Positions 8,156-34,474 of a stretch of DNA of 35,987 nucleotides are shown here, piece after piece; position 1 is the first letter of the stretch; each line of letters opens with the position of its first letter. Under the pieces are notes generated by a model. That model saw only the letters and a program-made list of their open reading frames with translations, did no database searches and was not told where the DNA came from. Source of the stretch: an uncultured Pirellulales bacterium. Its GTDB lineage: Bacteria; Planctomycetota; Phycisphaerae; Sedimentisphaerales; SM23-30. Where the stretch lies: the NCBI GenBank assembly GCA_964401265.1, contig CAYNXW010000002.1, forward strand, positions 1-35,987, written 5' to 3'. The translations under genes and the position numbers were made by a program.

Positions 8156-8221
8156 AAGAGGAAGATATGGGGATGAGGCAGTGCGTGGGGGCGTTGGGCA
8201 GATTGACAAGGTAGTGGTTTG

Positions 8222-9345: not shown

Positions 9346-9452
9346 GACATCGGTGTCGCCTTCGGCGACGCGTAGTATGAGCGCGGGCAACGTGTCCGGG
9401 AGAGGCTGAGCGTTTCGGGTTTGGAGTAGTTCTGAGTTTAACGGGTCAGGTG

Positions 9453-12926: not shown

Positions 12927-13178
12927 ATGAACGCATTGAGTGGGGTAACGCAGTCGCTGGTGCAGAGCGAGCTGACGAGTCTTCAGACGCGTCAGGCGAT
13001 CGATGTGGCGGTGGCGAAGAAGTCTCTGGATAGCAGCAGGCAAACGGGCGATGCGATCGTGGCGTTGCTGGAGGGTGCTGTGGCGGTGGCGGAGGCGAGC
13101 GGCTCGTCGGGCGGGGGCAGGGTTACGGTGGGGGCGTTGGTGTCGGGGCTGGGCCAGCACCTGGACGTGCGTGGGTGA
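12927..13178 (+). CDS. YjfB-like small protein (family annotated 'putative motility protein')
   Basis: The 83-aa product is MNALSGVTQSLVQSELTSLQTRQAIDVAVAKKSLDSSRQTGDAIVALLEGAV...GLGQHLDVRG. The N-terminal Q-rich helix, the V.V.KK.LD...Q.G.A...LLE core and the C-terminal G.G..LDV end match my recollection of the YjfB family layout. GAGGG (12916-12920) lies 6 nt upstream of the ATG. Confidence 0.6.
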   Translation: MNALSGVTQSLVQSELTSLQTRQAIDVAVAKKSLDSSRQTGDAIVALLEGAVAVAEASGSSGGGRVTVGALVSGLGQHLDVRG

Positions 13179-13640
13179 GAGGGGGCTGGGGGAATTATCG
13201 GACGGTAAATTTGGCGTGGTGGTTGTGTTGCGTGCTGATGGCAAGGGGGTGATGTTGTATGGCTCATGACCTTGGGGTGACAAGAGGTTGTCAGTGGGGT
13301 TGTTGTTGGGGGTTCTGTTGGTCCGGTTCTACAAAAGAAGCAGAAGATTTTTCTATCAGCATGTCTAGCAGTATCGAAAGGGGCGGTGGCGGGAGGTTGA
13401 GCTGGGTAGTGAGGGGACGGTCGATGGGGCTGGCAATACTGAAACGGGGGACAGGTGGGCACAAGTACGAGTCGTGAGGGGGTGGTTGTGATGAGGGGCC
13501 GGTCGGGGTGCAATTGGTCCTGGTGGTACTGATAAGGCTGATGGCAGGGTTTGGGGAGATTGTCGGGTTGAAAATGGCTTAAACATCTATGCGGTCTGGA
13601 ACGATAACAGTGGAGTGAAAATGGCGGGAGGTGTCTGTTC

Positions 13641-13655
13641 TGGCATCTCCGTTGG
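13641..13655 (+). promoter_or_regulatory. Weak candidate sigma-54 (-24/-12) promoter TGGCAT-N5-TTGG directly upstream of the preferred start of the giant gene
   Basis: TGGCATCTCCGTTGG compared with the consensus TGGCAC-N5-TTGC: the GG spacing is correct and the -12 GC is replaced by GG. The predicted transcription start (~13667) would sit just 5' of GAGGA (13675-13679) and ATG 13687. An NtrC-type activator is encoded 3 kb upstream. Confidence 0.25.
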
Positions 13656-13686
13656 TACTTCATGGCAAGCAAGCGAGGAACGCGTC

Positions 13687-16600
13687 ATGTCGCTGTTACG
13701 GAAACTTCGTCGGCAGGTTCGTCGGAACAATGGTCACGTTGAGCGGAAGCGGTTTGCACTTGAGCAATTGGAGCCGCGGTTGATGTTGAACGCGGATTTG
13801 CAGGTAGCGGACCTGTTCATCGACCCGATGAACGATCATCCGTATGCGTGGGGGGACAGTGCGGGGGTGGATATGAACGTGGTGGTGGAGAATACCGGGG
13901 ACAGTCTAGCTGCAGGTACGGCGACGTTGAGCTTTTACCTGAGCGACGACGCAACGCTGGACGTAGGGACTGATGCGTTGCTGACGGGTAGTTTAGAGAT
14001 ATCGGACCTTGCGGCGGGCGGGGCGTATCCGGCGGAGGCTGATTCGGCGGCGTTTGTGAGCGTGTCATTGCCGGGGCCTGGAGAGGCGGGTTTCAGTGCG
14101 GACGGGGACAAGTACCTGTTTGCGGTGGTGGACAGCGGGGACGCGATCGTCGAGAACGACGAGACGAACAATTCGGCGGCGGTTCAGTTGGCGGTGGGTA
14201 CGCCTTGGCCTGTGGTGGGCAGCGATCTGGTGGTGGACGATGCTGCGTTGCCGGAGGAGGGGACGCTCAAGTGGGGCAACACGTACACGATCTGGGCGGA
14301 CGTGTGGAACGCGGGCAACCGGGAGACGGAGACGTTTACGGTGGACGTGGTGCTCAGTGCGGACGGGGTGTACGGCAACGGTGACGATGTGTCGGTGTTG
14401 GCGGGTGGGCCTTTGGAGGTGACGGGCGGTCTGGCGGCGGGGGCGGAGAACGAGGATACGAGTGAGGTTCAGCTGGTGCTTCCGGCGTGGGACGGGGCAG
14501 CGTATGTGGATGGGGAGTACGCGTTGTTCATGGTGGCGGACAGCGGGCAGGCGGTGGCGGAGGTTTACGAGAGCAACAACGTCGCGTGCGGGTTTGTGAC
14601 GATCGAGCAATCGCCCGCGACGAGCGCCGGGGTGGATTTGGCGACGATGTTCTTTGAGGTGGAGGATCTGGACGAGGGGCCGGCGGAGCTGGTGTGGGGG
14701 CAGACGTATGAGGGGGAGTTTGCGTTGATGAACGGGGGGGACACGGGGATTCTGGAGGCGGATGCGGACTTTACGGTGTCAGTGGTGTTGAGTGAGAACA
14801 TGGTGTATGGGGACGGCAGTGATGTGGAGGTGGGCTCGCTGACGGTGACGGGGGCGTTGGACTCGTATGGTCTGTTGATGGAAGAGCTGGACGTGACGCT
14901 GCCGAGTTCGTTTGTGAATCCGAATTACCTGGTGCTGACGGCGGACAGGGATGGGATTTACGACGACGCGAACGAGGCGAACAACGTTTGGGTGGTTGAT
15001 CTGGCGGAGGCGACGTTTGTGGGGGCGGATGCGGATATTGCGGTGCAGGGGATGCCGGGCGAGTCTATGGATTTGGGGTGGGGGCAAACGTATCAGTTGC
15101 CGGTGATGTTGGAGAACCAGGGCAATACGATTATTGGCACGTCGTTTGATGTGAATCTGGTGTTGAGTCCGGACGGGACGTATGAGGCGTCGCCCAGCGA
15201 CGACCAGGTGGTGGGGACGGTGACGGTGACGTTTGGCGTTGATGAGGAGTTTGATCCCGGGCAGTGGTGGGATGAGACGGTGAGTGTGACGTTGCCTGCG
15301 GCGGGGGCAACGTACGGGTCGCATACGTATGGATCGCAGGAGGATTACTGGCTCTTTGCGGTTGTGGATACGAGCGGCATAGCGGGCGAGGATGCCAGCA
15401 ATAATGTGATGGGCAGCCAGGGGAAGGTTCTGTCGGCGAGTACACTGGCGGGGCCTCAGCTTTTTGTGAGCATGGTGGATATGGATAACGGCAGCCCTGA
15501 TTATATGCAGGGGCCTTTGAGTTATCTGTGGACGACGGGATCGCCTTATGTCGGCGGGTTTTCGGCGGAGGTGAGTAATGAGGGGACGGACGCGGTGGGG
15601 ACGTTTGATGTGACGGTGCGTCTGTCGGAGGATCCGTATTACGATGAGAGCGACGTGGTGGTGGCGTCGCGGACGGTGAATGGTCTGCCGGGGCTGGGCG
15701 TGGATAATACGCCGATGGACCTGACGATACCGGCGGAAACGGCGGCGGGGCCTTATTATCTGGTGACGATGGTGGATAGCGGCAATTCGGGGGCTGGGGT
15801 GATTGCGGAGGAGGAAGAGGGGGACAACGTGGCGCCGATGGCATTGAGTGTGCACGTAGGTGAGTTGTTGGCGGGTACGGAACTGCTGGGTGGTCGGTTC
15901 GACATGTTTGGGGCGGAGTCGGCGACGTGGGGCAGTGTGGTGAATGTGGATGGGGAGGTTCGCAATGCGGGCGATACGGCTTCGGGCGGGTTTACGGTGT
16001 CGTATTATTTGAGCGTGGATGACGTTGTCGATGGGGGCGATGAGTTGTTGGGCAGTGGGGAAGTTGACGGGGTGGGGGCTGGTGCGCAGTGGTTTGCGGG
16101 GAATACGGAGCTGACACTGCCGGGGCCAGGGACGCTGGCGGATGGGACGTATAACCTTATTATGGCTATCGACTCGGGCGGGGCGATTGCAGAGGCGGAT
16201 GAGACCAATAATACGTGGTCGATGCCTTTGGCGATTGGCGGCGGGGGTGGTGAGGAGCCGGACCTGGAAGTTCAGGCGGTGAATTGGCCTGTGGAGACGG
16301 TTTGGGATCCGGGTGCGGTGGTGACGCTGGATACGACGGTGGGCAATGTGGGGGCAGTGGGTGCGGGTCAGTTTGATGTGTCGGTGTATCTGTCGACGGA
16401 CGACGTGCCGGACGGTTCGGATATGCTGTTGGCGACGCGGACGGTGACGGAGCTGGCGGCAGGGACACCGAGCAACGCGCCGATGGAGATTACGATTCCG
16501 GCGGATACGGTGCCGGGCGATTACTTCCTGTATGTGGTGGCGGACAATACCGACGCGGTGGCTGAGGGTAATGAGACGAACAATATATGGTTGTCGCCTT

Positions 16601-19600
16601 TGGCGATTGGTGTTGCGCCGGAGCCGGATTTAGAGGTGCAAGATGTGACCTGGCCTGTGGAGACGGTGTGGGATCCGGGTGCGGTGGTGACGCTGGATAC
16701 GATGGTAAGTAATGTCGGGGCGGCGGCGGCGGGTCAGTTTGATGTGTCGGTGTACCTGTCGACGGACGACGTGCCGGACGGTTCGGACGTGCTGTTGGCG
16801 GCGCGGACGGTGACGGAGCTGGCGGCGGGGACGCCGAGCAATGCGCCGATGGAGATTACGATTCCGGCGGATACGGTGCCGGGCGATTACTTCCTGTATG
16901 TGGTGGCGGACGATGCGGGCGCGGTGGCTGAGGGTAACGAGACTAATAATATCTGGTTGTCGCCTTTGGCGATTGGCGGCGGTGGTGGTGAGCCGGACCT
17001 GCAGGTGGAGACAGTGAATTGGCCTGTGGAGACGGTGTGGGATCAGGACGTGAGCGTGACGCTGGAGACGGGGGTGCGGAACATTGGTACGGGTGCGGCG
17101 GGTGAGTTCGATGTGCGGGTGTACCTGTCGGCAGATGATGTGGCGGACGGTTCGGATGTGCTGTTGGCGACGCGTACGGTGACGGAGCTGGCGGCGGGGC
17201 TGGTAAGCGACGGCCAAATGGTGGTGACGATTCCGACGGAGACGGTGTCGGGCGAGTATTTCCTGTGCGTGGTGGCTGACGCGGGCGAGACGGTGGCGGA
17301 GAGCGATGAGCAGAACAACGCATGGACGGATGTGATAGCGATCGATCCGCAGGCGGATTTGGTGGCTGGTCAGTTGCAGCGTCAGGCGATGGGGCCTGAG
17401 GGGTCGTCGGCGGTGGGCTGGGGCGAGTCTTTGGATCTGATGGTGGAGGTGGCGAACGAGGGGATGTTGGCGACGGGTGTGGAAGCGACGGTGGCGTTTT
17501 ATCTGAGCGCGGACGGTACGTTGGATGTGGGGGCGGATGTGTTGTTGGCGGAGACGCTGACGGTGGTGGATCTGGGTCCTGAGGGTTACTTCAACGCGCC
17601 GGTGAGTCTGGCGTTGCCGGTGACGGGGGCGGATGGCGACTACTATGTGTTCATGGTGGTGGATTCGGATGAGGCGGTGGTGGAGGGTGACGAGAGTAAT
17701 AATGTGGGGTCACTGGCGGTGGGGATCGGGACGAGTGAGCCGGCGATTGGGGTGGATCTGCAGGCGCAGCATGTGAGTCTGCCGGGAATCCCGCTGCGGT
17801 GGGGCCAGAGCTATCCGGTGCACTTCGGTGTGAACAACGGCGGTAACCGGGGTGCGGGCTTGTTTGCGATCGATGTGGTGCTGAGCAGCGACAAGGTGTA
17901 CGGCAACGGGGACGAGGTGTCGATTCTGGCGGGCGGGGTGGTGACGGTGGCTGAGGGGTTGATGGCGGGCGAGTGGTACGACGGGACCGGGACGATCACG
18001 CTGCCGGGTATTGCTCCGGATGGTGACGGGTCTTATGGGATCTTCCTGGTGGTGGACAGCGGCGAGGCGGTGGTTGAGTCGTTCGAGAGCAATAACACGA
18101 GTATGATGGTCTCGGATATTGTGAGCGAGCTGGGGGTGACGCCGGGTGAAGTGGATTTGCAGGCGTTGGATTTGTTTGTGGATGCGTGGGAGGGGCTGGT
18201 GTGGGGTCAGACGTACGCGGGGCAGGCGTTGATTCAGAATATCGGGGAGACGGACATTGCCGAGGTGGATGCGGACTTTGCGGTGTCGGTGGTGCTGTCG
18301 GAGAATGAGGCGTATGAGGCGGGCAGTGATCTGGAGGTGGGGTCGCTGACGGTGAGCGGGGCGTTGGGCAGTGGCGGGGTGTTGCTGGCGGATGTGAGCA
18401 TGACGTTGCCGGCGTCGTTTACGAATGGGAATTTCCTGCTGCTGGTGGCGGATCGGGACGGGGTGTATGACGATCCGGAGGTCGAGGGGAACAACGTGGC
18501 GGTGCTGGACGTGGGGCCTTGGGGCGGGATTCAGGAGCCGATGGTGGATGTGACGCCCTTGGAGGCGGACATGCCGGAAGATGTGCCCATGCAGTGGGGC
18601 GGCAGTTACATTGCGTGTGCGGACGCGTTGAACGTGGGCAACACGGTTGTGAGTGCGGACTTTGATCTGGCGTTGTATCTGAGTCCGGACGAGGTTCTGG
18701 ACGGGGACGACTGGTTGTTGACGAGCGATCCGGGTGTGATTACGGTGACGGAGGATCTGGAGCCGGGCGACGAGGCGTGGAACGATGTTCTGATCACGCT
18801 GCCGACGACGAGTGACGCGACGACGGGTGGGCATACGTTTGGGGCGGAAGGTCAGGACCTGTACTGGCTGTTCGTGGTGGCGGACGAGGGCGGGGCCATT
18901 GCGGGCGAGGAAGTGATGAACAACGCGGTGGGCGAGCCGGTGTGGATTGTCGCAGGGACGGAGCTGGCGAGTCCGGATTTGCGGCTGATTGATTTTGAGC
19001 TGGAGATGGAGGGTGGCGATTACGGTCCGGAGGAGGATGGCCAGGACCTGGCGTTCTTGTGGACAAAGGGTGTGGCGTATACGGGGGCGCTGGATGCGAT
19101 TGTGTATAACGAGGGGACGGCGGCGGCGGAGTCGTTCGAGGTGACGGTGCGGTTGTCGTCTGATCCGTTTTATGACGAGACGGACGTGGTGGTGGGCAGT
19201 CGTACGGTGAACGGGCTGGGAAGTCTGGCGTTTGACGATGCGGAGATGGATCTGACGATCCCGGCGGACACGGCGGATGGGCCTTACTTTTTGGTGACGA
19301 AGGTGGACAGCGGGGCGGCGGTGACGGAGGCGGACGAGAGCAACAATGAATGTTGGGCGGTGCCGGTGCAGGTGGGCGAGCTGCTGAGCGGCGTGGACTT
19401 GCTGGGCAATGAGCTGGGCATTGAGGGGGGCAACGAGGTGACGTGGGGCGATACGAACGCGGTGCTTTTTGCGGACGTGCGAAACGCGGGGGATGAGGCG
19501 ATTGGGCCGTTTACGGTGCAGTTCTATCTGAGCGAAGACGGCGTGGCGGAGGCGGGCGAGGAGCTGGCAGGTACGGAAGTGCAGGTGGATCGTCTCGGAG

Positions 19601-22600: not shown

Positions 22601-25600
22601 TGCCGAACGCGTCTCCGGCGGAGGGTGTGGATACGTGGCACGTCTTGGCGAAGGCGGATTCGGAGGATGTGATCGAGGAGATGGACGAGATGGACAACAC
22701 GGGTTGGGCGCCGTTGTTCATCGGGTCGATGCCTGCCGATTTGTGGGGGAGTATGTACATCGACTTTAGTGATGGTGGGCAGGTGTTCTGGGGCGACGAC
22801 GTGACGCTGGAGCTGCAGATTGAGAACAGCGGGGAGAGCGACGCGAGCGGCTTTGAGGTTGCGTATTATCTCTCGAATGATCCGGAGTTGAGCGATGACG
22901 ACGTGATGTTGGGTGAGCCGCAGTTGATTGAGCTGGTGGAGGGGATGGGCAACAGCGGTCTTTTGACGCACACGTTGACGCTGCCGGTGGAGCCTTTGGA
23001 TGCGGGGAACATGATGGCGTTTATCGTGGCGGCGATTGATTACACGGACACGGTGGACGAGGTGGATGAGTGGAACAACCAGATGGCGATGTGGTTTGCC
23101 GGTGACGTGTCGGCGAGCGATCTGGTGGCGTTCAAGGCGGAGCCGCTGTTTGAGCCTGGCGAGTTCATGGCGTGGTGGAGCGACAGCGTTACGACGAATG
23201 CGATCGATGTGGCGTATGAATTTGCGAATTTTGGGAACGAGGACGCGGCGGACTTCACGGTTGAGTTTTACCTGACGAATGCGACGTGGATGGACTTTGG
23301 GGAGCCAGTGGCGTGGGACGGGACGGCGGTGCAGACGTACCTGCTGGGTCAGGAGACTGTTGCGTTGTTGGTGGGTGAGACGTTTGACCCGGCAGAGCCT
23401 CCGGTGGGAGAGGAAGGGCCTTTTGAGCCGCCGATGGGCGAGAACGTGTATAGTGGTCAGATGACGCTGGTGCTGCCGCAGGCGTCGGACGTGCCGTTTG
23501 TGCAGGCGGGCAACGAGAGTGGCAGTTACTCGCTGATGATGAAGGTGGATGGGGCAGAGACGATTAGCGAGATATTCGAGGACAACAATGTGACGTTGTC
23601 GCCATTGCGTCTGGAGATGCAGCATGGTGAGATCGACGTGACGGACGGCATGAACGATCCGCACGACCGGATGATTGATTTTGGTCCGGTGCTGATGAAT
23701 GAGCCTTTGGTGTCGAGCTTTACGGTGACCAATTTTGGGATGGGGCAGTTGACGCTGCACGATGTGGCGAGCGAGTGGGTGAATCTGGATGTGTGGGCAA
23801 GTGACGGGCAGGCATTGCCGATCGTGCTGGGGCCCGAGGCGTCGGTGACGTTTGATGTGGCGTTCACAGCAAATATGCAGGGGCACAACGAAGGTTGGGT
23901 GACGATCTACAGCGACGATCCGTGGCGGGGACCGGTGGATGTGCAGGTGTGGGCGGATGCGGCCTCGGCGCCGATAGACCTGGCGGTGACGGGTTTGGAG
24001 GCGGCGGGTGTCGGTGGTGGTCTGGTAGAGGCCGGGTTGCACTGGGGCGAGCCGCTGGATGTGACGGTGGAGGTGAGCAATCTGGAGTCGGGGGACACGG
24101 AAGGGGACGTGTGGCTGGACCTGATGCTGTCGGAGAATGCGGAGGGGACGGGGATGGTATTCTGGCTGGACGGCATGGCCATGCCGGGTGTGCCGGGCGG
24201 AGGGGTGACTGAGCAGGCTGTGAATGTAATGCTGCCGGAGATGTCGCCTTTCGGTTATGGCGGGGATCTCTACGTGATGGCGATGGTGCACCCGACGGGC
24301 GGGGAGTTTGAGGTGGATCCGTTCAACAACGAGGGGGCGGCGTTGGTGAACATTACGAGCGAGGCGATCGGTAAGCCTGATCTCACGTTCAATTGGCTGG
24401 GCATGCCGCCTGAGGCAGCGTGGGGGCAGCCGATGGATGTTGCGTTGGGCCTGACGAATATTGGGCTGGCCGATGCGCCGGAGTTCAATGTGCGTTATTA
24501 TCTGAGCACGAACGACCGACTGGAGCCGGCGGCGGATCTGTTGCTGGGTGAGTTGGGTGTGGCGGGGTTGAGTGCGGAGGGGTGGATGGACAAGCACTTC
24601 TGGTTTGATCTTCCGGAAGCGGGTGCGGACGGGCTGCACTATCTGATCGCGCAGATTGACGCGGACAACACGGTGGAGGAGGAGTTTGAGCAGAATAATG
24701 TCGCTATTGGTCGGTTTGAGGTGACGTCGGGTCCGTCGGCGGATCTGGCGGCGCAGTCGCTGAATGTGCCGGGCGAGATTGTCATTGGCGAGCCCTTTAC
24801 GCTTGAGCTGGACGTAGCGAATTATGGTGACGAGGGTGTGGCGAATGTGCGTGTGGAGTTCTTCCTGGCGGATCAGAGTCTTCCGGATCTGGCTTTGGGC
24901 GATTCTGAGCCGGAGCAGTTTTTGGGGATGTATATTGGTTCGGTGATGGTGCCGTCACTTCCGGCGAGCGAGACGGGCGAGCCGGTGAGGGTGAGCTTCG
25001 ACGCGATGCTTCCTCCGGGTTCATTGGAGCCGGGCGACATGTCGTTCGTGCAGGCGGTGGTTGACGCCGACCAGATGGTTGTTGAGATGGATGAGTTCAA
25101 CAACTTGATTGCGAGCGGTAATTTTACAGTCTCGGCAGGCGAGACTGACCTGGCGGGTGAGATCAGCGAGACGGTGGGCGAGGCTGCGTGGGGCGAGAAC
25201 GTGCCTTTGGCGTTGACGGTGACGAACACGGGCCAGATCGGTGCGCCGCCCTTCTTTGTGGACGTGTTGCTGAGTACGGACGACGTGCTGGACGAGAGTG
25301 ATTTCTATCTGACGAGCCAGGCCATATACGGGCTGGGTAACACGGCGGATGGTAACAGTGCTGAGTTGTACTTTGATCTGCATCTGCCGGAGTATGTCAA
25401 CACAGGCGACGGCGATTATTACCTGATGGTGAAGGTGGACGGGGCGGATACGGTGGTGGAGACGGACGAGGCGAACAACGTTGTGGCCAGTCCGATAGTG
25501 CTCGCGGGGACGCCGGACTTGAGCGTGTATCTGGAGCAGGCGCCGTTTACGTCGAACTTTGGCCAGACGATATCGGTGATTGACCAGGTGGACAACTACA

Positions 25601-28600
25601 GCATGTCGGCGGTGGGGGGGGCGTTTGAGGTGAGTTATTATCTCTCGCCGAGCGACGTGTATGATCCGGCCAGCGCGGTGCTGGTGGGGTCGCGGACGGT
25701 CAGTTCGCTGGAGGGTAACGGTTCGAGTCGGGCGACGACGTCGCTGACGCTGGCGCAGGGAGCGGACTGGCCTGCGCAGGGGCAGTTCTTCCTGTTTGCG
25801 GTGGTGGACGAGGCCAACGAGATAGATGAGTCGTTCGAGAGCGGGCTGGGGGCCGGCGAGTTGCAGTGGAACAATGTGTGCTGGATGCCGATTGAAATTG
25901 TGGAGGAGGGGATGCCGGATGTGACGGCGCTGCCGATGACGAGCTTGAGCGACAGTGCGGAGTGGGGCGAGCCGGTGTGGGTGGAGTACACGATTGACAA
26001 TATCGGAACGGCCGATGCCGAAGGGTTTACGGGTACGTTCTATTTGAGCGATAATTTGTCGATTACGCCGCGTGATTTTGCGTTGGGGACCGTGACGTTG
26101 GAGGGTTTGGATTCGCAGAGCAGTTATCAGGACGCGATCGAGCTGATGCTGCCTGCGGAGAGTCCGTACGGCATTGACGGTGAGTTCTATGTCGGATTGC
26201 TCTTGGACAGCGACGGGCAGATTATTGAGATCAACGAGAAGAACAACGTGACGGTGACGGATGGGGCTTTGACTATCGGGACTGTCATTAACGTGGACTT
26301 GCTGGCGGCGTATCTGGATGGGCCGGTGTTTGTGACGCCGGGCGCGACGCTGGAGTTTTATAACGAGGTTTACAACGCGGGCAGCATTGTTTCGGGTGCG
26401 TTTGATGTGGACTTTTATATGACGCAAGGCGGGGTGCTTGACGGCGGTGAGGTGCTGTTGGGGTCGCGGACGATCGAGTCGCTGGGGTCGGGGGCGTTCG
26501 ATGCGGAGATGACGGCGTTGACGTTGCCGGAGTCGTTGAGTGACGCGTACGGGCAGATGTTCACGGTAGTGATGGCGGTGAACCCGGCGGCGCTGGCTGA
26601 TCCGGCGACGGCGGCGACGGTGGAGCAGTACTATGACAACAACTGTCTGGCGTCGATGAACAGCTTTGAGGTTGTCGAGCCGATCATGCTGGACGTGTCG
26701 GTGGCAGATGTCAGCACAGTAGCTGAAGCCTCGTGGGGCGAGGGTGTGACGGTTGAGTTTGGGTTAGATGTGTCTGATGACTTGATGGGGCCGGTTGACG
26801 TGGAGTTTTATCTGCGGGACGGCGGGGCGACGTGGCTTTTGGGAGGCAGCACGGTGGGCGCGGGGGCGGGAGGATCGGCTGAGACGGTTGCTTTGACGCT
26901 GCCAGCGAGCAGTCCGTTTGGGCGGGACGGCAGCTTCGAGATTGTGGCGGTGGCGGATCCGTATAACATGCTGGCGGAAGCGGACGAAGGCAACAACAGT
27001 GGGGCCGCGGCGTTGACGGTTGGTAGCGGCAAGGCTGATCTGTTGCCTCTGGGGGTTTCGACGGCACCGAAGGCGTCGGCGGGGGATGCGATTGATGTCT
27101 ATAACGATGTGAGGAACGTTGGCTCGCAGGATGCGGGTGGATTTGACGTTTACTTCTACCTGACGAGCGGCAACACGACGATTGACACGAGTACGGATCG
27201 TCTTCTGGGCATGCGGCAGGTGATGGAGTTAGGTGAAGACGGTGTGGCGTTGCCGAGCGGCGAGGTGAACTGGACGATTACGAGTCTGGCGATACCGAGC
27301 GGCCTGGCGGACGGCGATTATTATCTGGCGATGGTGGTCGACAAATTTGACGACGTGGACGAGGCCAACGAAGACAACAACGTTATCTTCTCGGAGAGTG
27401 CTATCAAGGTGAAGACGGTGACGGTGGAGCCGGACGCCTACGAGCCGAACAACAGTCAGAGCAGCGCCAAGGCGGTGACGCTTGACGAGCAGGGCCAAGC
27501 GGAGACGTTGAGTGCGACGTTGCATGACAGCAACGATTTGGACTATTACCGGTTCACGACGCCAGCCAACGCGGACGGTTTTGCTCGGGTGGAGTTGTTC
27601 GCGGACGAGATGCTTAACGGGGCGGTTCTGGTGTACAACAGCAGCGGGACTCTGATCGGCGGTGCGGACAATGACTCGGCGTACGGAGGGGACGAGACCT
27701 TTACGACGTTTGCACTGGGCGGCGGCAGGACGTACACGGTTCTGGTCAAGGCTCTTGGCGAGTCGTCGGGCAGTTATGAGTTGGCATTGGAAGTGGGGCT
27801 GGGCACGGCTGGGGATCCTTACGAGACTAACGAGACGGCATCTGACGCTTATTATCTGGGCAAGACCGGCCAGACGCTGTGGGATGCGAGCGTGCATACC
27901 GGTACGGACGTGGACTACTACCAGTTTGTGGTGCCGGCGACTTCGACGGGCCTGACGACGGTTTCGGTGGAAACGGACCCGACGCTTGACGCGGTATTAC
28001 AGCTTTACGACGCGGACAACGTGCTTGTCGCCAGTGCGGACAACACCGGAGTGGGCGCTTTGGAGTCGATCACCTTTGAAGGGACCATTGGTGCCGATTA
28101 CTATGCCTGCGTCAGTGCGTGGGCGGAGAGTGTTGGTGGGTATCGGTTCGGCCTGGCGTTCGAGCAGGCGTTGACAAGCGATGCCTACGAGCCTAACGAT
28201 GATCGGGACTCGGCACACCACGTTGGAGAGGGTGATCTGATTCTGACGGACCCGGTGATTCATAACAAGACGGATGTTGACTATTATCGTTTGACGGTGC
28301 CGGGCCAGACGTCGGCACTTGAAGCGGTGGTGTTCGGTGCCGGTGGGCTCGATGCGTCGCTGGCCCTTTACGATGCCGAGGGCGTCCTGTTGCGGAGCGT
28401 AGACCGTGCAGGGGGCAACGGTGAGGAGACGCTGCTCTTTGGGGACTTGAGGGCAGGTGAGGACGTGTACCTGGCGGTGAGCGGTGTGGATACGACGACG
28501 GGTCGCTACGGTTTGGAAGTGGCGTACGGGACGGAGGACGTGGGCGATGTGGCTGAGCCCAATAATCGAACGACGAGTGCTTACGAGCTTGGGGTGATTG

Positions 28601-31539
28601 ACGGGACGGTGACGGTGGAAGGGCTTTCGGTTCACAATGAGGCGGACCGGGATTACTTCAGCTTTGTCGTGCCCGACGATAGTGACGGGACCGCGTCGAT
28701 TCGTGTGAAGCCTGTGACGACCACAAGCGGCCTGAACGCGGCGATCAGTGTGTTGGACAGCGAGGGCACGTTGGTGTCTTCGACAGACGCAGCGACGGTG
28801 GGTGAGACGGAAACGCTTCGGGTCAGTAGCGGCTTGGCAGCAGGGCAAACGTACTTTATCGACGTGAACGGTTGGGGCACCACAGGGGAGTACACCTTGA
28901 CGGTTCAGACGCCGGTGATGGCGGCGGCGCACGAGGCGACGCCAAGTGTGTCAGGCATGACCGAAGCGGACAGTGCCTGGGGGCTCACCAGTTACGGGTA
29001 TCTGCCGAGCACGCTGCCGGCGGCGATCAACGTGGTAGAAGAGGTGGGCAACCCGAACGATGACGACCTGTCGTTTGGCATGGTGGCGAGCGGTTCGAGT
29101 AGCACCGGTCAGGTCGTGTTGTTGAATACGGGCGCTTCGGACCTGGTGATTACGGATATGGCGACGGACAACGAGGCGTTTGCACTGCCGAGCAGTCTAA
29201 CAGATGCATTGCCTTTGACGATTGAGGCGAGCGGTTCGTACGTGTTGGATGTGAGCTTTAATCCGACGACGCAGCAGTTATATAGCGGTGCGAGCCTGAC
29301 CATTTCGAGCAACGACGAGGACACGCCCGAATACACGCTGGCGTTGAGCGGGACCGGAACGGTCAGCAGCGACAAGCCTGACATTGTCCTTTCGGATACG
29401 CAGGGTGTCGAGTTGTCGTCGTTGAGTTTTGAGGACACGGTTGTTGACGGCTCGAGCACGATGACGATTCGGATAGGCAACACCGGGGCGGCGTCGCTGG
29501 ACGTGACGTCGGCGTCGCTTTCGGGTGCCGGTGCGGATGCCTTCCAGGTGGTTCAGACGAACCTGGCGAACAAGTCTTCGGACAACTACGGCGTAGCGGC
29601 GGATGGCCAGCGGGCGATTCAGGTGAAGTTCCTGCCGACCGATACGGGCGCCTACAATGCGACGCTGACCTTGACCAGTAACGACCCGGATGAGTCGAGC
29701 GTTGTGATTCCTCTGACGGGTTCGGGGGCGGCTCCGGAGTTGGTGGTGGACCTGAACCCGGCGGACGGGACGGTAGCGAACGCTCTGAACCCCTCGGTGG
29801 TGTTTGGCGAACAGGTGGCCGACGGTGCAGGTGGTCAGCGTGGTGAGTATCCGATCAGTATCGTCAATACCGGTACGACGGCGCTGACGATCAGCGGGAT
29901 TGCTTTTGGTGAAGAGGCGGGCGCGTTCAGTATCATCGGCGATGGTGTCGACCTGGCGGGCTTTACAGTGGAGCCGGGTGAGAGCATCGGGGCGACGCTT
30001 GTGTTCGATCCGCAAGCGTTGCCTGAAGGGGCGGGCGCGGCGTGGGCAGTTGATGCCGCTGCGTATGGCGACACCATGACGGTCTACAGTGACGACTTTG
30101 ACAGTCCGGTGATGCGGTTCAGTCTGTCGGGCCAGGCGATCGAGCCGGTGGTCGTCAGCGTTGAAAGCACGGGCGAGTTCTACTATACCGAGCCCGACGG
30201 CGACGAAGTCCTGGTTACCTACAACGGCTCGGGTGCGGCGACGTTTACCTTCGATAGCGATGGGCTGGACTCGGCGACGCTGACCAGCGTGACTTTGACG
30301 GGCTCGGACGATCGGGGTCAATTGACTATTGTCGCATCGGACGGGAACGGCGACGGTGCGGTAGATGTTGGGGCCATTATGATCGAGGGCGACTTCGGCA
30401 CGATCAAGGTTGAAGGCGACGTAGCATCGATCGACGGGGACGGGTCCATCAGTAAAATCCTGGTAGAGGGTTCGCTGGGCGGCCTGGACGTGGCCGACGA
30501 GGTGCGTTCGCTGAGCGTTGACTCTCTCAGTGGTGAGGTGACGGCCGCTTCGTTCAACAATGTGACGGTTGAGGGCGACATCAGCGGGGCGACGATTACA
30601 GCTGACGACATGGAGGACCCGACGATTAACGTCTTGAAGGTTGGCGGGGCCGTGAGTGATACCTCCATCAGTGGTGCGATTAACCGGCTGCAGGTGACTG
30701 GGGCGGTCAGTGATACGAGCATCGATGCCGGCACCGAGGCTATTCGTACGGTGTTGCTGCGGGCCGGGGCGGACAGTCTGGACATTGAAGCGGGCTCGGT
30801 CAGTTCGCTCAAGGTGACGGGTGACCTGTTGGGTAGCAGCCTGTCGATTCGGGGGGAAGACGCACAACTGGGCAGCGTCCAGGTCAGTGGCGACGCCGAG
30901 ATCAATCTGGACAGCGAAGCGACAATTCGCAGCCTGAAGGTGGGCGGCGATTTGAGCGGCAGTATTGACGCGACCACCGCGAACGGTGCGATCAATCGTA
31001 TTGCGGCTGGGGGCGATATCAGTGCCAACATCAGGGCAGTATCGGCCATTCGGAACATTTCGGCCAAGGGCGACATTCTCAGTTCGGCAATCGAGGTGAC
31101 GGACGGCGAGGGTGCTGGTGTGCTGGGCAGTCTCAAGGCCGGCGGTAACGTGAATGTCGCCAATCTGGACGTTGAAGGTGTTATCAATCGCTTGAGTGCC
31201 GGTTCGCGTCGCAGCGGGGGCAATCTGTCGGGTGCGGTCAATGCCGACGATACTGTCGGGACGGTCAAGGTCTTTGGTGACATCTTTGCGGACCTGACCG
31301 CGGGCAACAGGCTGCGGGCGGTTACGGCGGGCGGTTCTCTGATGGGCGATGCGGACGTCACGTGCAGTGCGGGTGACATCGATCGCGTGCTGATCGGCGA
31401 ACGGATTTACGGGACGATCAGTGCCAATGACGGGCAGGGCAGTATCGGTCGGCTACGTTACGACGAAAACACGTTCTACAATCCTGATACCGAGCAGGTT
31501 GATCTGCCGCGGACGCATATCAATGCCCAGTGGCTCTAG
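13687..31539 (+). CDS. Giant secreted/surface repeat protein (~5,950 aa): LEPR-type N-terminus, ~34 CARDB-like modules, 1 internal Ig-like domain, 4 PPC (pre-peptidase C-terminal) domains, 3 Ig-like (choice-of-anchor-D/ASH-like) domains, C-terminal solenoid-like repeats
   Basis: A single open frame runs 13615..31539 (5,974 aa from GTG 13615). I prefer ATG 13687, which has GAGGA 7 nt upstream and gives MSLLRKLRRQVRRNNGHVERKRFALEQLEPRLMLNA. ATG 13621, with GGAG 5 nt upstream, is an alternative. Modules of ~120-135 aa end in acidic-x-NN motifs (ETNN/ESNN/EANN/EDNN/EQNN) and show the CARDB-like pattern WG....V...V.N.G...F.V..YLS.D......D..L........L..G.......L..P.....G.Y.L...VD....V.E..E.NN. The PPC domains carry AYEPNN/PYETNE...DVDYYRF motifs. 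Confidence 0.93.
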   Translation: MSLLRKLRRQVRRNNGHVERKRFALEQLEPRLMLNADLQVADLFIDPMNDHPYAWGDSAGVDMNVVVENTGDSLAAGTATLSFYLSDDATLDVGTDALLTGSLEISDLAAGGAYPAEADSAAFVSVSLPGPGEAGFSADGDKYLFAVVDSGDAIVENDETNNSAAVQLAVGTPWPVVGSDLVVDDAALPEEGTLKWGNTYTIWADVWNAGNRETETFTVDVVLSADGVYGNGDDVSVLAGGPLEVTGGLAAGAENEDTSEVQLVLPAWDGAAYVDGEYALFMVADSGQAVAEVYESNNVACGFVTIEQSPATSAGVDLATMFFEVEDLDEGPAELVWGQTYEGEFALMNGGDTGILEADADFTVSVVLSENMVYGDGSDVEVGSLTVTGALDSYGLLMEELDVTLPSSFVNPNYLVLTADRDGIYDDANEANNVWVVDLAEATFVGADADIAVQGMPGESMDLGWGQTYQLPVMLENQGNTIIGTSFDVNLVLSPDGTYEASPSDDQVVGTVTVTFGVDEEFDPGQWWDETVSVTLPAAGATYGSHTYGSQEDYWLFAVVDTSGIAGEDASNNVMGSQGKVLSASTLAGPQLFVSMVDMDNGSPDYMQGPLSYLWTTGSPYVGGFSAEVSNEGTDAVGTFDVTVRLSEDPYYDESDVVVASRTVNGLPGLGVDNTPMDLTIPAETAAGPYYLVTMVDSGNSGAGVIAEEEEGDNVAPMALSVHVGELLAGTELLGGRFDMFGAESATWGSVVNVDGEVRNAGDTASGGFTVSYYLSVDDVVDGGDELLGSGEVDGVGAGAQWFAGNTELTLPGPGTLADGTYNLIMAIDSGGAIAEADETNNTWSMPLAIGGGGGEEPDLEVQAVNWPVETVWDPGAVVTLDTTVGNVGAVGAGQFDVSVYLSTDDVPDGSDMLLATRTVTELAAGTPSNAPMEITIPADTVPGDYFLYVVADNTDAVAEGNETNNIWLSPLAIGVAPEPDLEVQDVTWPVETVWDPGAVVTLDTMVSNVGAAAAGQFDVSVYLSTDDVPDGSDVLLAARTVTELAAGTPSNAPMEITIPADTVPGDYFLYVVADDAGAVAEGNETNNIWLSPLAIGGGGGEPDLQVETVNWPVETVWDQDVSVTLETGVRNIGTGAAGEFDVRVYLSADDVADGSDVLLATRTVTELAAGLVSDGQMVVTIPTETVSGEYFLCVVADAGETVAESDEQNNAWTDVIAIDPQADLVAGQLQRQAMGPEGSSAVGWGESLDLMVEVANEGMLATGVEATVAFYLSADGTLDVGADVLLAETLTVVDLGPEGYFNAPVSLALPVTGADGDYYVFMVVDSDEAVVEGDESNNVGSLAVGIGTSEPAIGVDLQAQHVSLPGIPLRWGQSYPVHFGVNNGGNRGAGLFAIDVVLSSDKVYGNGDEVSILAGGVVTVAEGLMAGEWYDGTGTITLPGIAPDGDGSYGIFLVVDSGEAVVESFESNNTSMMVSDIVSELGVTPGEVDLQALDLFVDAWEGLVWGQTYAGQALIQNIGETDIAEVDADFAVSVVLSENEAYEAGSDLEVGSLTVSGALGSGGVLLADVSMTLPASFTNGNFLLLVADRDGVYDDPEVEGNNVAVLDVGPWGGIQEPMVDVTPLEADMPEDVPMQWGGSYIACADALNVGNTVVSADFDLALYLSPDEVLDGDDWLLTSDPGVITVTEDLEPGDEAWNDVLITLPTTSDATTGGHTFGAEGQDLYWLFVVADEGGAIAGEEVMNNAVGEPVWIVAGTELASPDLRLIDFELEMEGGDYGPEEDGQDLAFLWTKGVAYTGALDAIVYNEGTAAAESFEVTVRLSSDPFYDETDVVVGSRTVNGLGSLAFDDAEMDLTIPADTADGPYFLVTKVDSGAAVTEADESNNECWAVPVQVGELLSGVDLLGNELGIEGGNEVTWGDTNAVLFADVRNAGDEAIGPFTVQFYLSEDGVAEAGEELAGTEVQVDRLGAGEVLATDVMNFVPAGGTLANGTYNLIMVIDADGAIAELDEANNTFSMPLTIGGSEPDLQVETVNWPVETVWDQDVSVTLETGVRNFGAGAAGEFDVRVYLSEDDVADGSDVLLATRTVTELAAGLVSDGQMVVTIPTETASGEYFLCVVADAGETVAETDEQNNVWADKIAIDPQPDLAVMEMHVPMDHVIAGDMIHVEGRVANMSPVGVEAYEFAAVLSTDDVFDASDVVLGRLTDMIMPGEEKMHFLDVNVPGDVAEGAYYIGFVVDPDNLVEESDEANNSLFSMPVQVEAAIPDLMLGHFEVWGMPLSMGDMFTVANEIRNESDFDAGPFTVTFVLSADEVIDGSDMVLGERILGGLWPWGGDEQHNDLVIPNDGSVAPGEYFLGVIVDSQGEVVERNEENNVVSMPISIMPPDIDLIVAWFDPHMGGPLVWGDSFGVTADVRNDGPHEAPATEATIYLSGDGLLDGGDVVLTTLAIEPLGGGGLSPHDLMITLPGEAGAVVGEDYHLIMEVDSGAVAEETFEDNNVWVVPLGIETPVVDLVVPGPPPGEEPPMFEMLWGLDYELPLDAFNEGNGTVGPFTISMYLSENPTYEPGDMELASVVVDGLGPWQDSFNEAAVQLPGAGVLADGTYYLVMFADSGEVIEEGFEDNNMMSMPVNISEPNFVEGVDLQIKEFFFEMGENVGWGQSYEVVADVFNSGDTTAGVFEITIALSSDNTFDVASDTVIGVATVDGLASGGVSINDIMVTLPEEGVLPDGAYRVFMVIDGADVVEEVDELNNSVDFIINIGQSGADLALMDIFMPFDAAWGSEIVVDAWVENWGSLTVGSVDVAFYLSEDWVWDAEVDELLATTTLESLGGGEGVMTSATITLPESGEQNMLRVIGVVDPANTIEEFDEQFNNMLIRDVSLGERELSNLMAWPMIVFEPDAPNVDWGSTLTLDTMVDNMSPLEVEAFTVKYYLSQDEQVGTDDVVLGRSDVSGMMPFEHQSLMGVSLKLPNASPAEGVDTWHVLAKADSEDVIEEMDEMDNTGWAPLFIGSMPADLWGSMYIDFSDGGQVFWGDDVTLELQIENSGESDASGFEVAYYLSNDPELSDDDVMLGEPQLIELVEGMGNSGLLTHTLTLPVEPLDAGNMMAFIVAAIDYTDTVDEVDEWNNQMAMWFAGDVSASDLVAFKAEPLFEPGEFMAWWSDSVTTNAIDVAYEFANFGNEDAADFTVEFYLTNATWMDFGEPVAWDGTAVQTYLLGQETVALLVGETFDPAEPPVGEEGPFEPPMGENVYSGQMTLVLPQASDVPFVQAGNESGSYSLMMKVDGAETISEIFEDNNVTLSPLRLEMQHGEIDVTDGMNDPHDRMIDFGPVLMNEPLVSSFTVTNFGMGQLTLHDVASEWVNLDVWASDGQALPIVLGPEASVTFDVAFTANMQGHNEGWVTIYSDDPWRGPVDVQVWADAASAPIDLAVTGLEAAGVGGGLVEAGLHWGEPLDVTVEVSNLESGDTEGDVWLDLMLSENAEGTGMVFWLDGMAMPGVPGGGVTEQAVNVMLPEMSPFGYGGDLYVMAMVHPTGGEFEVDPFNNEGAALVNITSEAIGKPDLTFNWLGMPPEAAWGQPMDVALGLTNIGLADAPEFNVRYYLSTNDRLEPAADLLLGELGVAGLSAEGWMDKHFWFDLPEAGADGLHYLIAQIDADNTVEEEFEQNNVAIGRFEVTSGPSADLAAQSLNVPGEIVIGEPFTLELDVANYGDEGVANVRVEFFLADQSLPDLALGDSEPEQFLGMYIGSVMVPSLPASETGEPVRVSFDAMLPPGSLEPGDMSFVQAVVDADQMVVEMDEFNNLIASGNFTVSAGETDLAGEISETVGEAAWGENVPLALTVTNTGQIGAPPFFVDVLLSTDDVLDESDFYLTSQAIYGLGNTADGNSAELYFDLHLPEYVNTGDGDYYLMVKVDGADTVVETDEANNVVASPIVLAGTPDLSVYLEQAPFTSNFGQTISVIDQVDNYSMSAVGGAFEVSYYLSPSDVYDPASAVLVGSRTVSSLEGNGSSRATTSLTLAQGADWPAQGQFFLFAVVDEANEIDESFESGLGAGELQWNNVCWMPIEIVEEGMPDVTALPMTSLSDSAEWGEPVWVEYTIDNIGTADAEGFTGTFYLSDNLSITPRDFALGTVTLEGLDSQSSYQDAIELMLPAESPYGIDGEFYVGLLLDSDGQIIEINEKNNVTVTDGALTIGTVINVDLLAAYLDGPVFVTPGATLEFYNEVYNAGSIVSGAFDVDFYMTQGGVLDGGEVLLGSRTIESLGSGAFDAEMTALTLPESLSDAYGQMFTVVMAVNPAALADPATAATVEQYYDNNCLASMNSFEVVEPIMLDVSVADVSTVAEASWGEGVTVEFGLDVSDDLMGPVDVEFYLRDGGATWLLGGSTVGAGAGGSAETVALTLPASSPFGRDGSFEIVAVADPYNMLAEADEGNNSGAAALTVGSGKADLLPLGVSTAPKASAGDAIDVYNDVRNVGSQDAGGFDVYFYLTSGNTTIDTSTDRLLGMRQVMELGEDGVALPSGEVNWTITSLAIPSGLADGDYYLAMVVDKFDDVDEANEDNNVIFSESAIKVKTVTVEPDAYEPNNSQSSAKAVTLDEQGQAETLSATLHDSNDLDYYRFTTPANADGFARVELFADEMLNGAVLVYNSSGTLIGGADNDSAYGGDETFTTFALGGGRTYTVLVKALGESSGSYELALEVGLGTAGDPYETNETASDAYYLGKTGQTLWDASVHTGTDVDYYQFVVPATSTGLTTVSVETDPTLDAVLQLYDADNVLVASADNTGVGALESITFEGTIGADYYACVSAWAESVGGYRFGLAFEQALTSDAYEPNDDRDSAHHVGEGDLILTDPVIHNKTDVDYYRLTVPGQTSALEAVVFGAGGLDASLALYDAEGVLLRSVDRAGGNGEETLLFGDLRAGEDVYLAVSGVDTTTGRYGLEVAYGTEDVGDVAEPNNRTTSAYELGVIDGTVTVEGLSVHNEADRDYFSFVVPDDSDGTASIRVKPVTTTSGLNAAISVLDSEGTLVSSTDAATVGETETLRVSSGLAAGQTYFIDVNGWGTTGEYTLTVQTPVMAAAHEATPSVSGMTEADSAWGLTSYGYLPSTLPAAINVVEEVGNPNDDDLSFGMVASGSSSTGQVVLLNTGASDLVITDMATDNEAFALPSSLTDALPLTIEASGSYVLDVSFNPTTQQLYSGASLTISSNDEDTPEYTLALSGTGTVSSDKPDIVLSDTQGVELSSLSFEDTVVDGSSTMTIRIGNTGAASLDVTSASLSGAGADAFQVVQTNLANKSSDNYGVAADGQRAIQVKFLPTDTGAYNATLTLTSNDPDESSVVIPLTGSGAAPELVVDLNPADGTVANALNPSVVFGEQVADGAGGQRGEYPISIVNTGTTALTISGIAFGEEAGAFSIIGDGVDLAGFTVEPGESIGATLVFDPQALPEGAGAAWAVDAAAYGDTMTVYSDDFDSPVMRFSLSGQAIEPVVVSVESTGEFYYTEPDGDEVLVTYNGSGAATFTFDSDGLDSATLTSVTLTGSDDRGQLTIVASDGNGDGAVDVGAIMIEGDFGTIKVEGDVASIDGDGSISKILVEGSLGGLDVADEVRSLSVDSLSGEVTAASFNNVTVEGDISGATITADDMEDPTINVLKVGGAVSDTSISGAINRLQVTGAVSDTSIDAGTEAIRTVLLRAGADSLDIEAGSVSSLKVTGDLLGSSLSIRGEDAQLGSVQVSGDAEINLDSEATIRSLKVGGDLSGSIDATTANGAINRIAAGGDISANIRAVSAIRNISAKGDILSSAIEVTDGEGAGVLGSLKAGGNVNVANLDVEGVINRLSAGSRRSGGNLSGAVNADDTVGTVKVFGDIFADLTAGNRLRAVTAGGSLMGDADVTCSAGDIDRVLIGERIYGTISANDGQGSIGRLRYDENTFYNPDTEQVDLPRTHINAQWL
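16255..17352 (+). repeat. Three tandem in-frame copies of a 363-369-nt unit (CARDB modules 7-9, each beginning EPDL(E/Q)V)
   Basis: Unit starts are 16255, 16621 and 16990. My hand alignment of copy 1 against copy 2 gives about 38 mismatches in the first 360 nt (~89% identity), including a >60-nt identical run (ggagattacg...tggtggcgga). Copy 3 is more diverged. Confidence 0.9.
19765..20127 (+). repeat. Dispersed fourth copy of the same unit (module 16), near-identical to copy 3 at 16990-17352
   Basis: My hand alignment of 16990-17352 against 19765-20127 has no gaps and about 32 mismatches in 363 nt (~91% identity). The two copies lie 2.8 kb apart within the same ORF. Confidence 0.9.
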
Positions 31540-31628
31540 CGTGGGTCAGGTCCCGGGCGTGGTTGCCCTTTAGTGATGCCATGAGCAGCGGTTTGGGCAG
31601 GCATCTTGCGGGGACAAGGTGATAGCCT

Positions 31629-32669: not shown

Positions 32670-32734
32670 CAGGTCCATGCTTGACGCAGGCAAAACGCAG
32701 GCGTCTGAGACGAGGGGGCACGTTGCGGGGCGTT

Positions 32735-34273: not shown

Positions 34274-34406
34274 CCCGGACAGGTGCAGAGAAACCGGTTT
34301 GGCAACGGTAATTGGGGGGGTATCAAGGCCGGGGCGTTTTGGTTATCGGCTCTTGGGGAGCTTTGACGTGGTGGTGGAGAGAGGCAGCATGTGGAGGCGG
34401 CGTTGG

Positions 34407-34435
34407 TTGACGGCGGATGGTTGGGGTGCTAGAAT
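34407..34435 (+). promoter_or_regulatory. Candidate sigma-70-type promoter TTGACG-17 nt-(TGc)TAGAAT upstream of the cysteine-desulfurase-like gene
   Basis: TTGACG at 34407-34412, a 17-nt spacer, TAGAAT at 34430-34435, and an extended -10 TG at 34427-34428. This lies ~40 nt upstream of GTG 34475. Sequence match only. Confidence 0.45.
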
Positions 34436-34474
34436 GGCCTTTGGGGAAGGGGGCTGTTAACATAGGAGCATTAC

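Follow-up and report, generated by a model that had tools for sequence, protein, structure and literature searches.

Giant genes are a recognized trait of the Planctomycetota and of the other phyla in the Planctomycetes-Verrucomicrobia-Chlamydiae (PVC) group (PMC5177795, PMC12673574, PMC11573180). Planctomycete giants with a LEPR-type N-terminus have already been described as probable envelope proteins, and this N-terminus is already modeled by both NCBIfam and Pfam. The motif itself, RRLxxExLExRxLLA or LEPR, is held to be an N-terminal signal for export that is specific to planctomycetes; of the ten longest proteins of Tuwongella immobilis, eight carry it; 20 of the 52 proteins with the motif in this species have been detected, eight of these exclusively in the sodium dodecyl sulfate (SDS)-soluble fraction, and the authors considered the long motif-bearing proteins likely to be surface-exposed (PMC8567305). 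Here, we analyzed a 35,987-nt stretch of an uncultured planctomycete genome (contig CAYNXW010000002.1, hereafter the window), half of which is taken up by a single giant gene on the + strand. Its product has in common with the LEPR-XLL giants (NF012209, PF07595; Studholme 2004 cited in PMC8567305) a basic N-terminus followed by LE-x-LE-x-R-x-LL and lacking a hydrophobic h-region, a great length, a construction from Ig-like or beta-sandwich domains in tandem, and a planctomycete origin. Our sequence comparisons and structural models suggest, with a probability that we put at about 0.7, that the giant gene, from a Sedimentisphaerales-like planctomycete, encodes a fibrillar protein that is exported and either envelope-associated or extracellular.

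The reading frame and its LEPR-type leader

The protein opens with a 38-aa leader (13687..13800, + strand) in which a strongly basic stretch (residues 1-22, with nine K/R and one E) is followed by the LEPR-XLL or "planctomycete extracellular" motif FALEQLEPRLMLNADL (aa 23-38, nt 13753-13800, + strand). Beginning at residue 23 of 5,950, after the basic stretch, the motif stands at the extreme N-terminus. The NCBIfam model NF012209 (LEPR-8K, "LEPR-XLL domain-containing protein") recognizes it above its cut-off of 17, with 22.6 bits when a 3,000-aa fragment is scanned and 27.1 bits for the first 60 aa by themselves, so that the LEPR-type N-terminus proposed in an earlier reading of the letters of this DNA (the original prediction) is confirmed. 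The same holds for the proposed lack of a Sec h-region. By hydropathy, no Sec/Tat h-region is present in the first 60 aa, where the highest 10-aa window (ADLQVADLFI) reaches 1.22, as compared with 2.3-3.5 in the Sec-type leaders of proteins sharing the C-terminal domain described below; the LEPR N-termini of such proteins have a median top 10-aa value of 1.35.

The frame is open without any internal stop from 13615 to 31539 on the + strand, as had been predicted; the predicted length of ~5,970 aa has to be corrected to 5,950 aa plus the stop when counted from ATG 13687, the supported start (coding sequence 13687..31539). This start (MSLLRKL...) is the choice of the gene callers on independent contigs, it is matched by the complete orthologues, which start MS[LT]LRKLRR, and it is preceded by the Shine-Dalgarno-like GAGGAA. 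The open frame reaches upstream of the ATG, to 13615, and the codons there (VKMAGGVCSG...) show no conservation. The 13615-13686 extension was considered as a hidden signal peptide and rejected, because VKMAGGVCSGISVGTSWQASEERV is not hydrophobic and the orthologues begin at the ATG.

The same gene is found in independent assemblies. The identical protein is on record from the window's own NCBI contig. On an ENA contig of 44 kb, a 5,949-aa version, aligned with one gap of 1 aa, has 99.87% identity; from aa 1006 to 5950, a JGI contig encodes the protein at 99.94% identity, and nine further loci from eight other ENA/JGI assemblies are 99.84-99.99% identical to the window DNA. The tandem modules are crossed gap-free in the independent assemblies L001 and L004, in the latter up to window position 17175. 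One locus (L091, JGI 3300028895) has two deletions inside the region coding for the beta-solenoid of the tail, at window positions 30732-30818 (~87 nt) and 31455-31498 (~44 nt), which break the frame into 2,742-aa and 184-aa products and could be a repeat-mediated population variant or an assembly error. These frame-breaking deletions, and the fact that all assemblies compared appear to be short-read, are what could be said for an assembly chimera or a decaying pseudogene. Such an origin is hardly credible in view of at least two independent full-length open reading frames (ORFs) plus a third of 4,945 aa, all 99.9% identical, of internal repeats that do not exceed 93% identity over 300 nt, and of complete colinear orthologues of 5,203 and 5,457 aa. 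The gene is real, and a chimera is very unlikely.

The composition of the protein is as extreme as its length. At 623 kDa, it has a computed pI of ~4.05 and contains 1004 D+E against 138 K+R (net charge ~-866), in line with the strong acidity noted originally; Cys accounts for nine of the 5,950 residues, and ten of the 13 basic residues of the first 250 aa sit in residues 1-31. No membrane span is apparent anywhere in the giant protein, the top 19-aa Kyte-Doolittle window being 1.44. Because the neighboring gene products in the window have an ordinary pI (5-9.9) and the orthologues are equally acidic and Cys-poor (14-17% D/E, ~2% K/R, 0-12 Cys), the extreme negative charge and the scarcity of Cys are a trait of the protein family and not of the host proteome. 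A salt-in halophile proteome as the source of the acidity was rejected in view of the same neighbors.

The CARDB array, the distal domains and the C-terminal domain

Immediately behind the leader, CARDB-like modules 1-25 extend over 13792..23601 (+ strand, aa 36-3305; Pfam CARDB E = 8e-174), followed by a non-CARDB, Ig-like domain that interrupts the array (23602..23973, + strand) and by CARDB-like modules 26-34 (23974..27393, + strand, aa 3430-4569). Pfam CARDB (PF07705) gave 565.7 and 283.3 bits (E = 8e-174 and 8e-86) against a cut-off of 22.7, in 17 and 7 significant stretches, and a hidden Markov model (HMM) trained in successive rounds on the modules of the protein itself delimited exactly 34 of them, 25 + 9. 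The interrupting domain shows weak matches of the DUF1573/HYDIN type (DUF1573 22.1 bits and HYDIN/VesB-like Ig 18.7 bits, both under their cut-offs; DUF1573 E = 5e-10 in a scan of a long fragment). Modules 1-25 are ~110-130 aa each and have 14-29 D/E against 0-4 K/R; in the module alignment, D2, N30, L45, P81, D96, E103, N108, and N109 are nearly invariant. Repeat comparison showed that modules 7-9 (16201..17281, + strand) arose by a recent triplication in tandem (3 x 366 nt), and that a further copy, module 16 (19756-20137), is 90-93% identical to module 9; modules outside this recent expansion have 19-40% identity to module 9. In module 7, the one K/R counted originally was found again, and a recount gave 18 D/E instead of ~19.

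The array modules are predicted to adopt the beta-sandwich fold of solved CARDB domains. The AlphaFold2 (AF2) model of module 9, for which the other 33 modules served as input alignment, is a seven-strand beta-sandwich with a predicted local distance difference test score (pLDDT) of 94.9. Its top PDB matches in Foldseek are 3idu, 2kl6, and 2l0d (E = 1.5e-5 to 3.7e-4, TM 0.68-0.74), the best being 3idu (E = 1.5e-5, TM 0.71-0.74, root-mean-square deviation (rmsd) 2.4-2.5 A, 28% identity), which is the CARDB domain of PF1109 from Pyrococcus furiosus in an entry titled "in complex with di-metal ions".

Two further groups of beta-sandwich domains lie distal to the array. The first consists of four repeats of the pre-peptidase C-terminal (PPC) type (27427..28920, + strand), starting near aa 4584, 4711, 4833, and 4955. 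PPC (PF04151) matches repeats 2-4 with 24.6, 22.1, and 22.0 bits, just under the cut-off of 25.9, over profile positions 1-53, 1-69, and 1-70 of 70, and repeat 1 has no Pfam match. In a MAFFT alignment, repeats 1-3 align mutually and have the motifs D-x-YEPN ... D-x-DYY in common; in repeat 4, AEPNN and DRDYF were read from the translation, in addition to the sub-cut-off Pfam match. The second group comprises three Ig-like domains of the choice-of-anchor D/HYDIN-ASH type (29059..30147, + strand), for which NF012200 (choice-of-anchor D) scored 101.9 bits against a cut-off of 45 in four stretches; the Pfam families Cep192_D4, HYDIN_VesB_CFA65, and ASH also match this region, the third domain weakly. 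The layout given in the original prediction, i.e. a LEPR N-terminus, 25 CARDB-like modules, one unrelated Ig-like domain, nine more modules, four PPC domains, three choice-of-anchor-D/ASH Ig domains, and a tail, thus proved right almost to the base, with the qualification that the four PPC domains are seen as repeats whose Pfam scores stay below 25.9 or, for the first, do not appear. Equally upheld was the claim that recognizable anchors are missing: neither an accepted Pfam/NCBIfam match nor an LPxTG/PEP string was found for a type IX secretion system (T9SS) C-terminal domain, PEP-CTERM, LPXTG, or an autotransporter barrel, and hydropathy gave no hydrophobic C-terminal segment. The matches to Por_Secre_tail are spurious, being internal to PPC repeat 4 with E = 0.03-0.06.

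This architecture is conserved in orthologous giants, two of which are complete (P0005, 5,203 aa, present in three assemblies, with the N-terminus MSTLRKLRRQ...LEPLENRVLLNADL; P0008, 5,457 aa, with the N-terminus MSLLRKLRRN...LEQLEPRLLLNADL) and two partial (P0007, 5,034 aa; P0003, 3,506 aa). They have a common order of CARDB array, Ig, CARDB, four PPC, Ig domains, and tail, and they are colinear with the giant protein across 3,589-5,676 residues at 36-49% identity. Since the alignments are colinear and 28-31 modules were counted in P0005, P0007, and P0008 (16 in the N-terminally truncated P0003), most modules appear to have position-specific orthologues and not to be undergoing homogenization. 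With aa 1-170 as the query, a word-index search returned no significant match and missed the protein itself, which reflects a limit of the index and is not evidence.

The conservation of individual modules bears on the possibility that the protein is mainly a polyanionic matrix or cation-buffering material, i.e. a secreted, hydrated polymer loaded with Ca2+/Mg2+ that would serve a capsule or biofilm or maintain surface solubility at high ionic strength. The net charge of ~-866, the 14-29 acidic against 0-5 basic residues per module, and an acidity that is common to the orthologues but not to the neighboring proteins would agree with such a role, and cultured Sedimentisphaera originate from hypersaline mats. 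It is nevertheless distinctly unlikely, because the position-specific orthology of modules over 5,000 aa and the conserved terminal domains exceed the needs of a bulk polymer and because the PPC and Ig domains suggest specific binding.

The protein ends in a 463-aa C-terminal domain (30148..31536, + strand), the conserved last residues of which read ...NTFYNPDTEQVDLPRTHINAQWL. The original prediction had its size right at ~460 aa and described it as a degenerate repeat tail, which does not hold; it is a conserved folded domain, modeled by AF2 from a three-sequence alignment as all beta with a pLDDT of 92 and a predicted TM score (pTM) of 0.87. In this confident model, a beta-sandwich bearing the sequence Y/F-T-[DE]-x-DGD-x-V (here YTEPDGDEV) is followed by a beta-solenoid of ~20 "h-x-h-x-G" strand-turn units. 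The tail had no Pfam or NCBIfam match at E <= 1, and its profile had no match to PDB sequences at E <= 1. Foldseek found no significant fold for the model in the PDB (best E = 0.1, generic beta-helices), the non-significant matches including the beta-helical region of MpIBP (3p4g) and the S-layer protein RsaA, and among Pfam families none covers the domain, the similarities to FapA and bactofilin solenoids being sub-threshold. A word-index search with the tail returned two fragments and nothing more, and when 1.84 billion representatives were searched exhaustively with the profile, 113 tail-domain proteins came up at E <= 1e-3, of which 13 had E values below 1e-30.

These 113 proteins connect the tail domain with the LEPR motif. 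The pattern LE.R plus two hydrophobic residues occurs in the first 110 aa of 60 of them, and of 55 of the 83 sequences that start with M, many of the others being fragments; by a rough estimate, the chance of finding this seven-residue pattern within 110 residues is well below 1%. Some proteins of ~280-400 aa (P0030, P0037, P0057, and P0063) consist of the LEPR motif and the solenoid alone, and in others (P0036, P0039, and P0060) the solenoid domain stands directly behind the LEPR motif and is not C-terminal. Six tail-domain proteins have a classical hydrophobic signal peptide where others have the LEPR motif. These Sec-type leaders would place the shared tail domain outside the cytoplasm and, by occupying the LEPR position, lend indirect support to the LEPR motif as an export signal. 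In every orthologous giant, the full tail domain ends no more than ~20 residues from the C-terminus; H-[IL]-x-A is conserved as a short end motif. Because it is always found at the extreme C-terminus of the orthologues, the tail is the obvious candidate for retention or binding.

The position of the tail is also what would be expected of an adhesin secreted in the manner of type I secretion system (T1SS) substrates such as LapA, MpIBP, or SiiE, which would leave the cell C-terminus first, directed by a signal in the conserved tail domain, through an ATP-binding cassette (ABC) transporter, a membrane fusion protein (MFP), and TolC, the LEPR N-terminus acting as the retention end. The conserved end motif, the absence of a signal peptide, the pI of ~4, the nine Cys, the tandem beta-sandwiches, the distal binding-type domains, and a C-terminal beta-helix whose non-significant fold matches include those to MpIBP and RsaA are all consistent with this mode of export. 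RTX (repeats-in-toxin) nonapeptides are, however, lacking, since GG.G.D occurs zero times in the whole protein and no HemolysinCabind match was obtained; neither the window nor the DNA flanking three orthologues contains ABC, MFP, or TolC genes; and a solenoid that stands behind a LEPR motif in P0036, P0039, and P0060, or behind a Sec leader in other proteins, argues for targeting from the N-terminus. We therefore regard a type I secretion mode as unlikely.

Nor do the relatives of the tail domain favor an intracellular scaffold, located in the cytoplasm or an enlarged periplasm, in which the LEPR motif would do something else than direct export. Intracellular structural roles have been proposed by some authors for certain planctomycete giant proteins (PMC5177795), and they would accord with a protein that has no classical signal peptide or membrane span. 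That the present protein is one of these is quite improbable, given that secreted or surface proteins are the usual setting of CARDB, PPC, and choice-of-anchor-D domains, that tail-domain relatives bear Sec-type signal peptides, and that motif-bearing proteins of T. immobilis were recovered in the SDS-soluble fraction, the long ones being judged likely to be surface-exposed (PMC8567305).

A more far-reaching idea, which we consider rather unlikely, is that the LEPR motif and the "TDxDGD" sandwich-solenoid domain may be the two halves of a PVC-specific sorting system, in which the motif would export the product without a hydrophobic signal peptide and the solenoid would dock it to the envelope or polymerize it. 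The LEPR-plus-solenoid mini-proteins might then be the basic unit and the giants cargo-loaded versions of it. The data are compatible with the idea: 60 of the 113 solenoid proteins bear the motif, and no counterpart of the domain was found in Pfam, NCBIfam, or the PDB.

Proposed working of an exported fiber

Taking the giant protein to be exported and fibrillar, as we favor, its parts can be assigned putative roles. The basic stretch and LEQLEPRLML of the leader would constitute a class-specific export signal that replaces the Sec signal peptide. The 34 CARDB modules, identified as such by profile and model, and the one Ig-like domain would be strung into a long rod; with the seven distal domains added, these 35 make 42 beta-sandwich domains, which at an estimated ~4 nm each would give a fiber of ~150-200 nm. 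By analogy with RTX adhesin extenders, where Ca2+ in the linkers stiffens tandem beta-sandwiches (PMC7493085), divalent cations at the conserved D/N/E residues of the module ends probably make the rod stiffer. The four PPC-like and three choice-of-anchor-D Ig domains would be the likely ligand-binding part, and the C-terminal domain, with its predicted fold, may tie the fiber to the envelope or to itself or may be an adhesive tip. Negative charge and near-absence of Cys would fit an extracytoplasmic, cation-coated protein.

Several observations weigh against this interpretation. PF07595 (Pfam Planc_extracel) aligns at aa 20-37 (E = 0.076) and reaches 13.2 of the 25.5 bits required, so that the protein falls outside the formal Pfam family because the score is too low, although the position of the motif agrees. 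The absence of a signal peptide was judged from hydropathy alone, and the cation binding suggested for the rod is drawn from conserved residues and the title of a PDB entry. Finally, neither the 36-kb window nor the flanks of P0008, P0005, and P0009 yielded any secretion or anchoring gene. In the original prediction, the export route, retention, and ligand were called all unexplained; this stands for the export machinery, the retention, and the ligand, but it was overstated as a feature of this gene, because the LEPR motif is already held to be an export signal and the tail is a conserved folded domain, the property being class-wide.

Genomic surroundings and relation to known systems

The polynucleotide phosphorylase (PNPase) encoded upstream of the giant gene is 62-67% identical to PNPases of Sedimentisphaerales metagenome-assembled genomes (Phycisphaerae, Planctomycetota), which indicates a Sedimentisphaerales-like member of the Phycisphaerae as the host. 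The genes surrounding the giant gene are unremarkable. According to profile scans, the window also encodes, on the - strand, a xylose-isomerase-like protein and a 701-aa fusion (1438-3543) of a formylglycine-generating enzyme (FGE)-sulfatase-like part and a six-hairpin glycosidase-like part (Bac_rhamnosid6H/MGH1-like), an unusual combination. Upstream of the giant gene lie rpsO and pnp and then, all on the + strand, a small histidine kinase between pnp and the giant gene (8219-9076), an NtrC-type sigma-54 activator (9450-10820, 2.9 kb upstream of the giant gene), a 616-aa ORF (10961-12811) with no Pfam or NCBIfam match, and an 83-aa ORF (12927-13178; YjfB_motility 27.5 bits against a cut-off of 27). 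The synteny of the 616-aa ORF is kept in the independent assemblies of this strain, and the orthologues do not have this ORF in their flanks; the 83-aa ORF, between it and the giant gene, was called in four independent assemblies. A D-2-hydroxyacid dehydrogenase, a tetratricopeptide repeat (TPR) protein, and a class V aminotransferase are listed after the giant gene. The flanks of P0008, P0005, and P0009 have no gene in common with the window. DUF748/YhdP-like (AsmA-family) genes occur within a few kb of P0005 and P0009 (L092 4379-7924, L093 17806-18294), and an OmpA-domain gene adjoins P0009; with nothing comparable in the window, these neighbors are probably coincidental.

No claim is made for a regulatory link between the NtrC-type regulator and the giant gene, as sigma-54 sites are not above chance: TGGCAC-N5-TTGCA with up to two mismatches gave 12 matches against 9.8 expected and none in 13179-13686. 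Sigma-70 promoter and terminator scans at both ends of the gene likewise yielded nothing above chance, and an Rfam scan of the whole window gave no match. The + strand has a GC skew of 0.3-0.47 over window positions 3000-31000, fading at 1-1437 and 31600-35600. In third codon positions, genes of the + strand have a skew of +0.56 to +0.76 and the three genes of the - strand, on their coding strand, one of -0.36 to -0.76, and intergenic stretches of >100 nt between 3.5 and 34.5 kb have a skew of +0.25 to +0.75. Because the + strand is G-rich at silent sites regardless of gene orientation, the skew points to a mutational or replication-strand bias and not to a property of the giant gene. Elsewhere, the skew is also strong at some Sedimentisphaerales loci, with 0.29 at L008 and 0.23 at L012, and it is -0.04 at the P0008 locus.

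The export of many LEPR-type giants without a hydrophobic signal peptide is a genuine class-wide question, which a locus from an uncultured host makes no easier to test than other members do. What this locus adds is an orthologous family of 5,000-aa CARDB fibers with position-specific conservation of modules and a new beta-solenoid domain at the C-terminus, modeled with confidence, which accompanies LEPR N-termini, is missing from Pfam, NCBIfam, and the PDB, and in a few proteins stands behind ordinary Sec signal peptides. This domain and its association with the LEPR motif are the sole element that we did not find described.

Relative to the PVC giant genes as a whole (Reva and Tummler 2008; PMC5177795; PMC11573180; bioRxiv 10.1101/2023.11.21.568195), with which it shares a length of >5 kb (here 17.9 kb), repetitiveness, and a product that is probably a surface protein, the gene shows no difference in kind and adds to them an example whose orthologous family is documented. 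Compared with the LEPR-XLL giants, it is distinguished by its particular content, namely 34 CARDB, four PPC-like, and three choice-of-anchor D domains and an unannotated C-terminal beta-solenoid, by a PF07595 match that is sub-threshold, and by a host among the uncultured Phycisphaerae and not among the studied Planctomycetia. With the RTX adhesins LapA, MpIBP, SiiE, and MhLap (PMC7493085), the protein shares its giant size, acidity, Cys-poorness, and lack of a Sec signal, as well as a beta-sandwich extender, distal binding-type modules, and a C-terminal beta-helical region, and cation-stiffened linkers are plausible here too. It differs from them in having no nonapeptides, no recognizable T1SS signal, and no nearby T1SS genes, in carrying a LEPR motif instead of a folded N-terminal retention module, and in an extender made of CARDB modules where theirs is made of BIg domains. 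The closest structural relatives of the modules are the archaeal CARDB domains of PF1109 (3idu, 2kl6) and of the Methanosarcina surface protein MA_4588 (2l0d), which have the same fold as the modeled module (TM 0.68-0.74, rmsd 2.4-3.1 A, 20-28% identity); theirs are single domains, whereas the planctomycete protein strings 34 far more negatively charged copies into an array of 4,500 residues.

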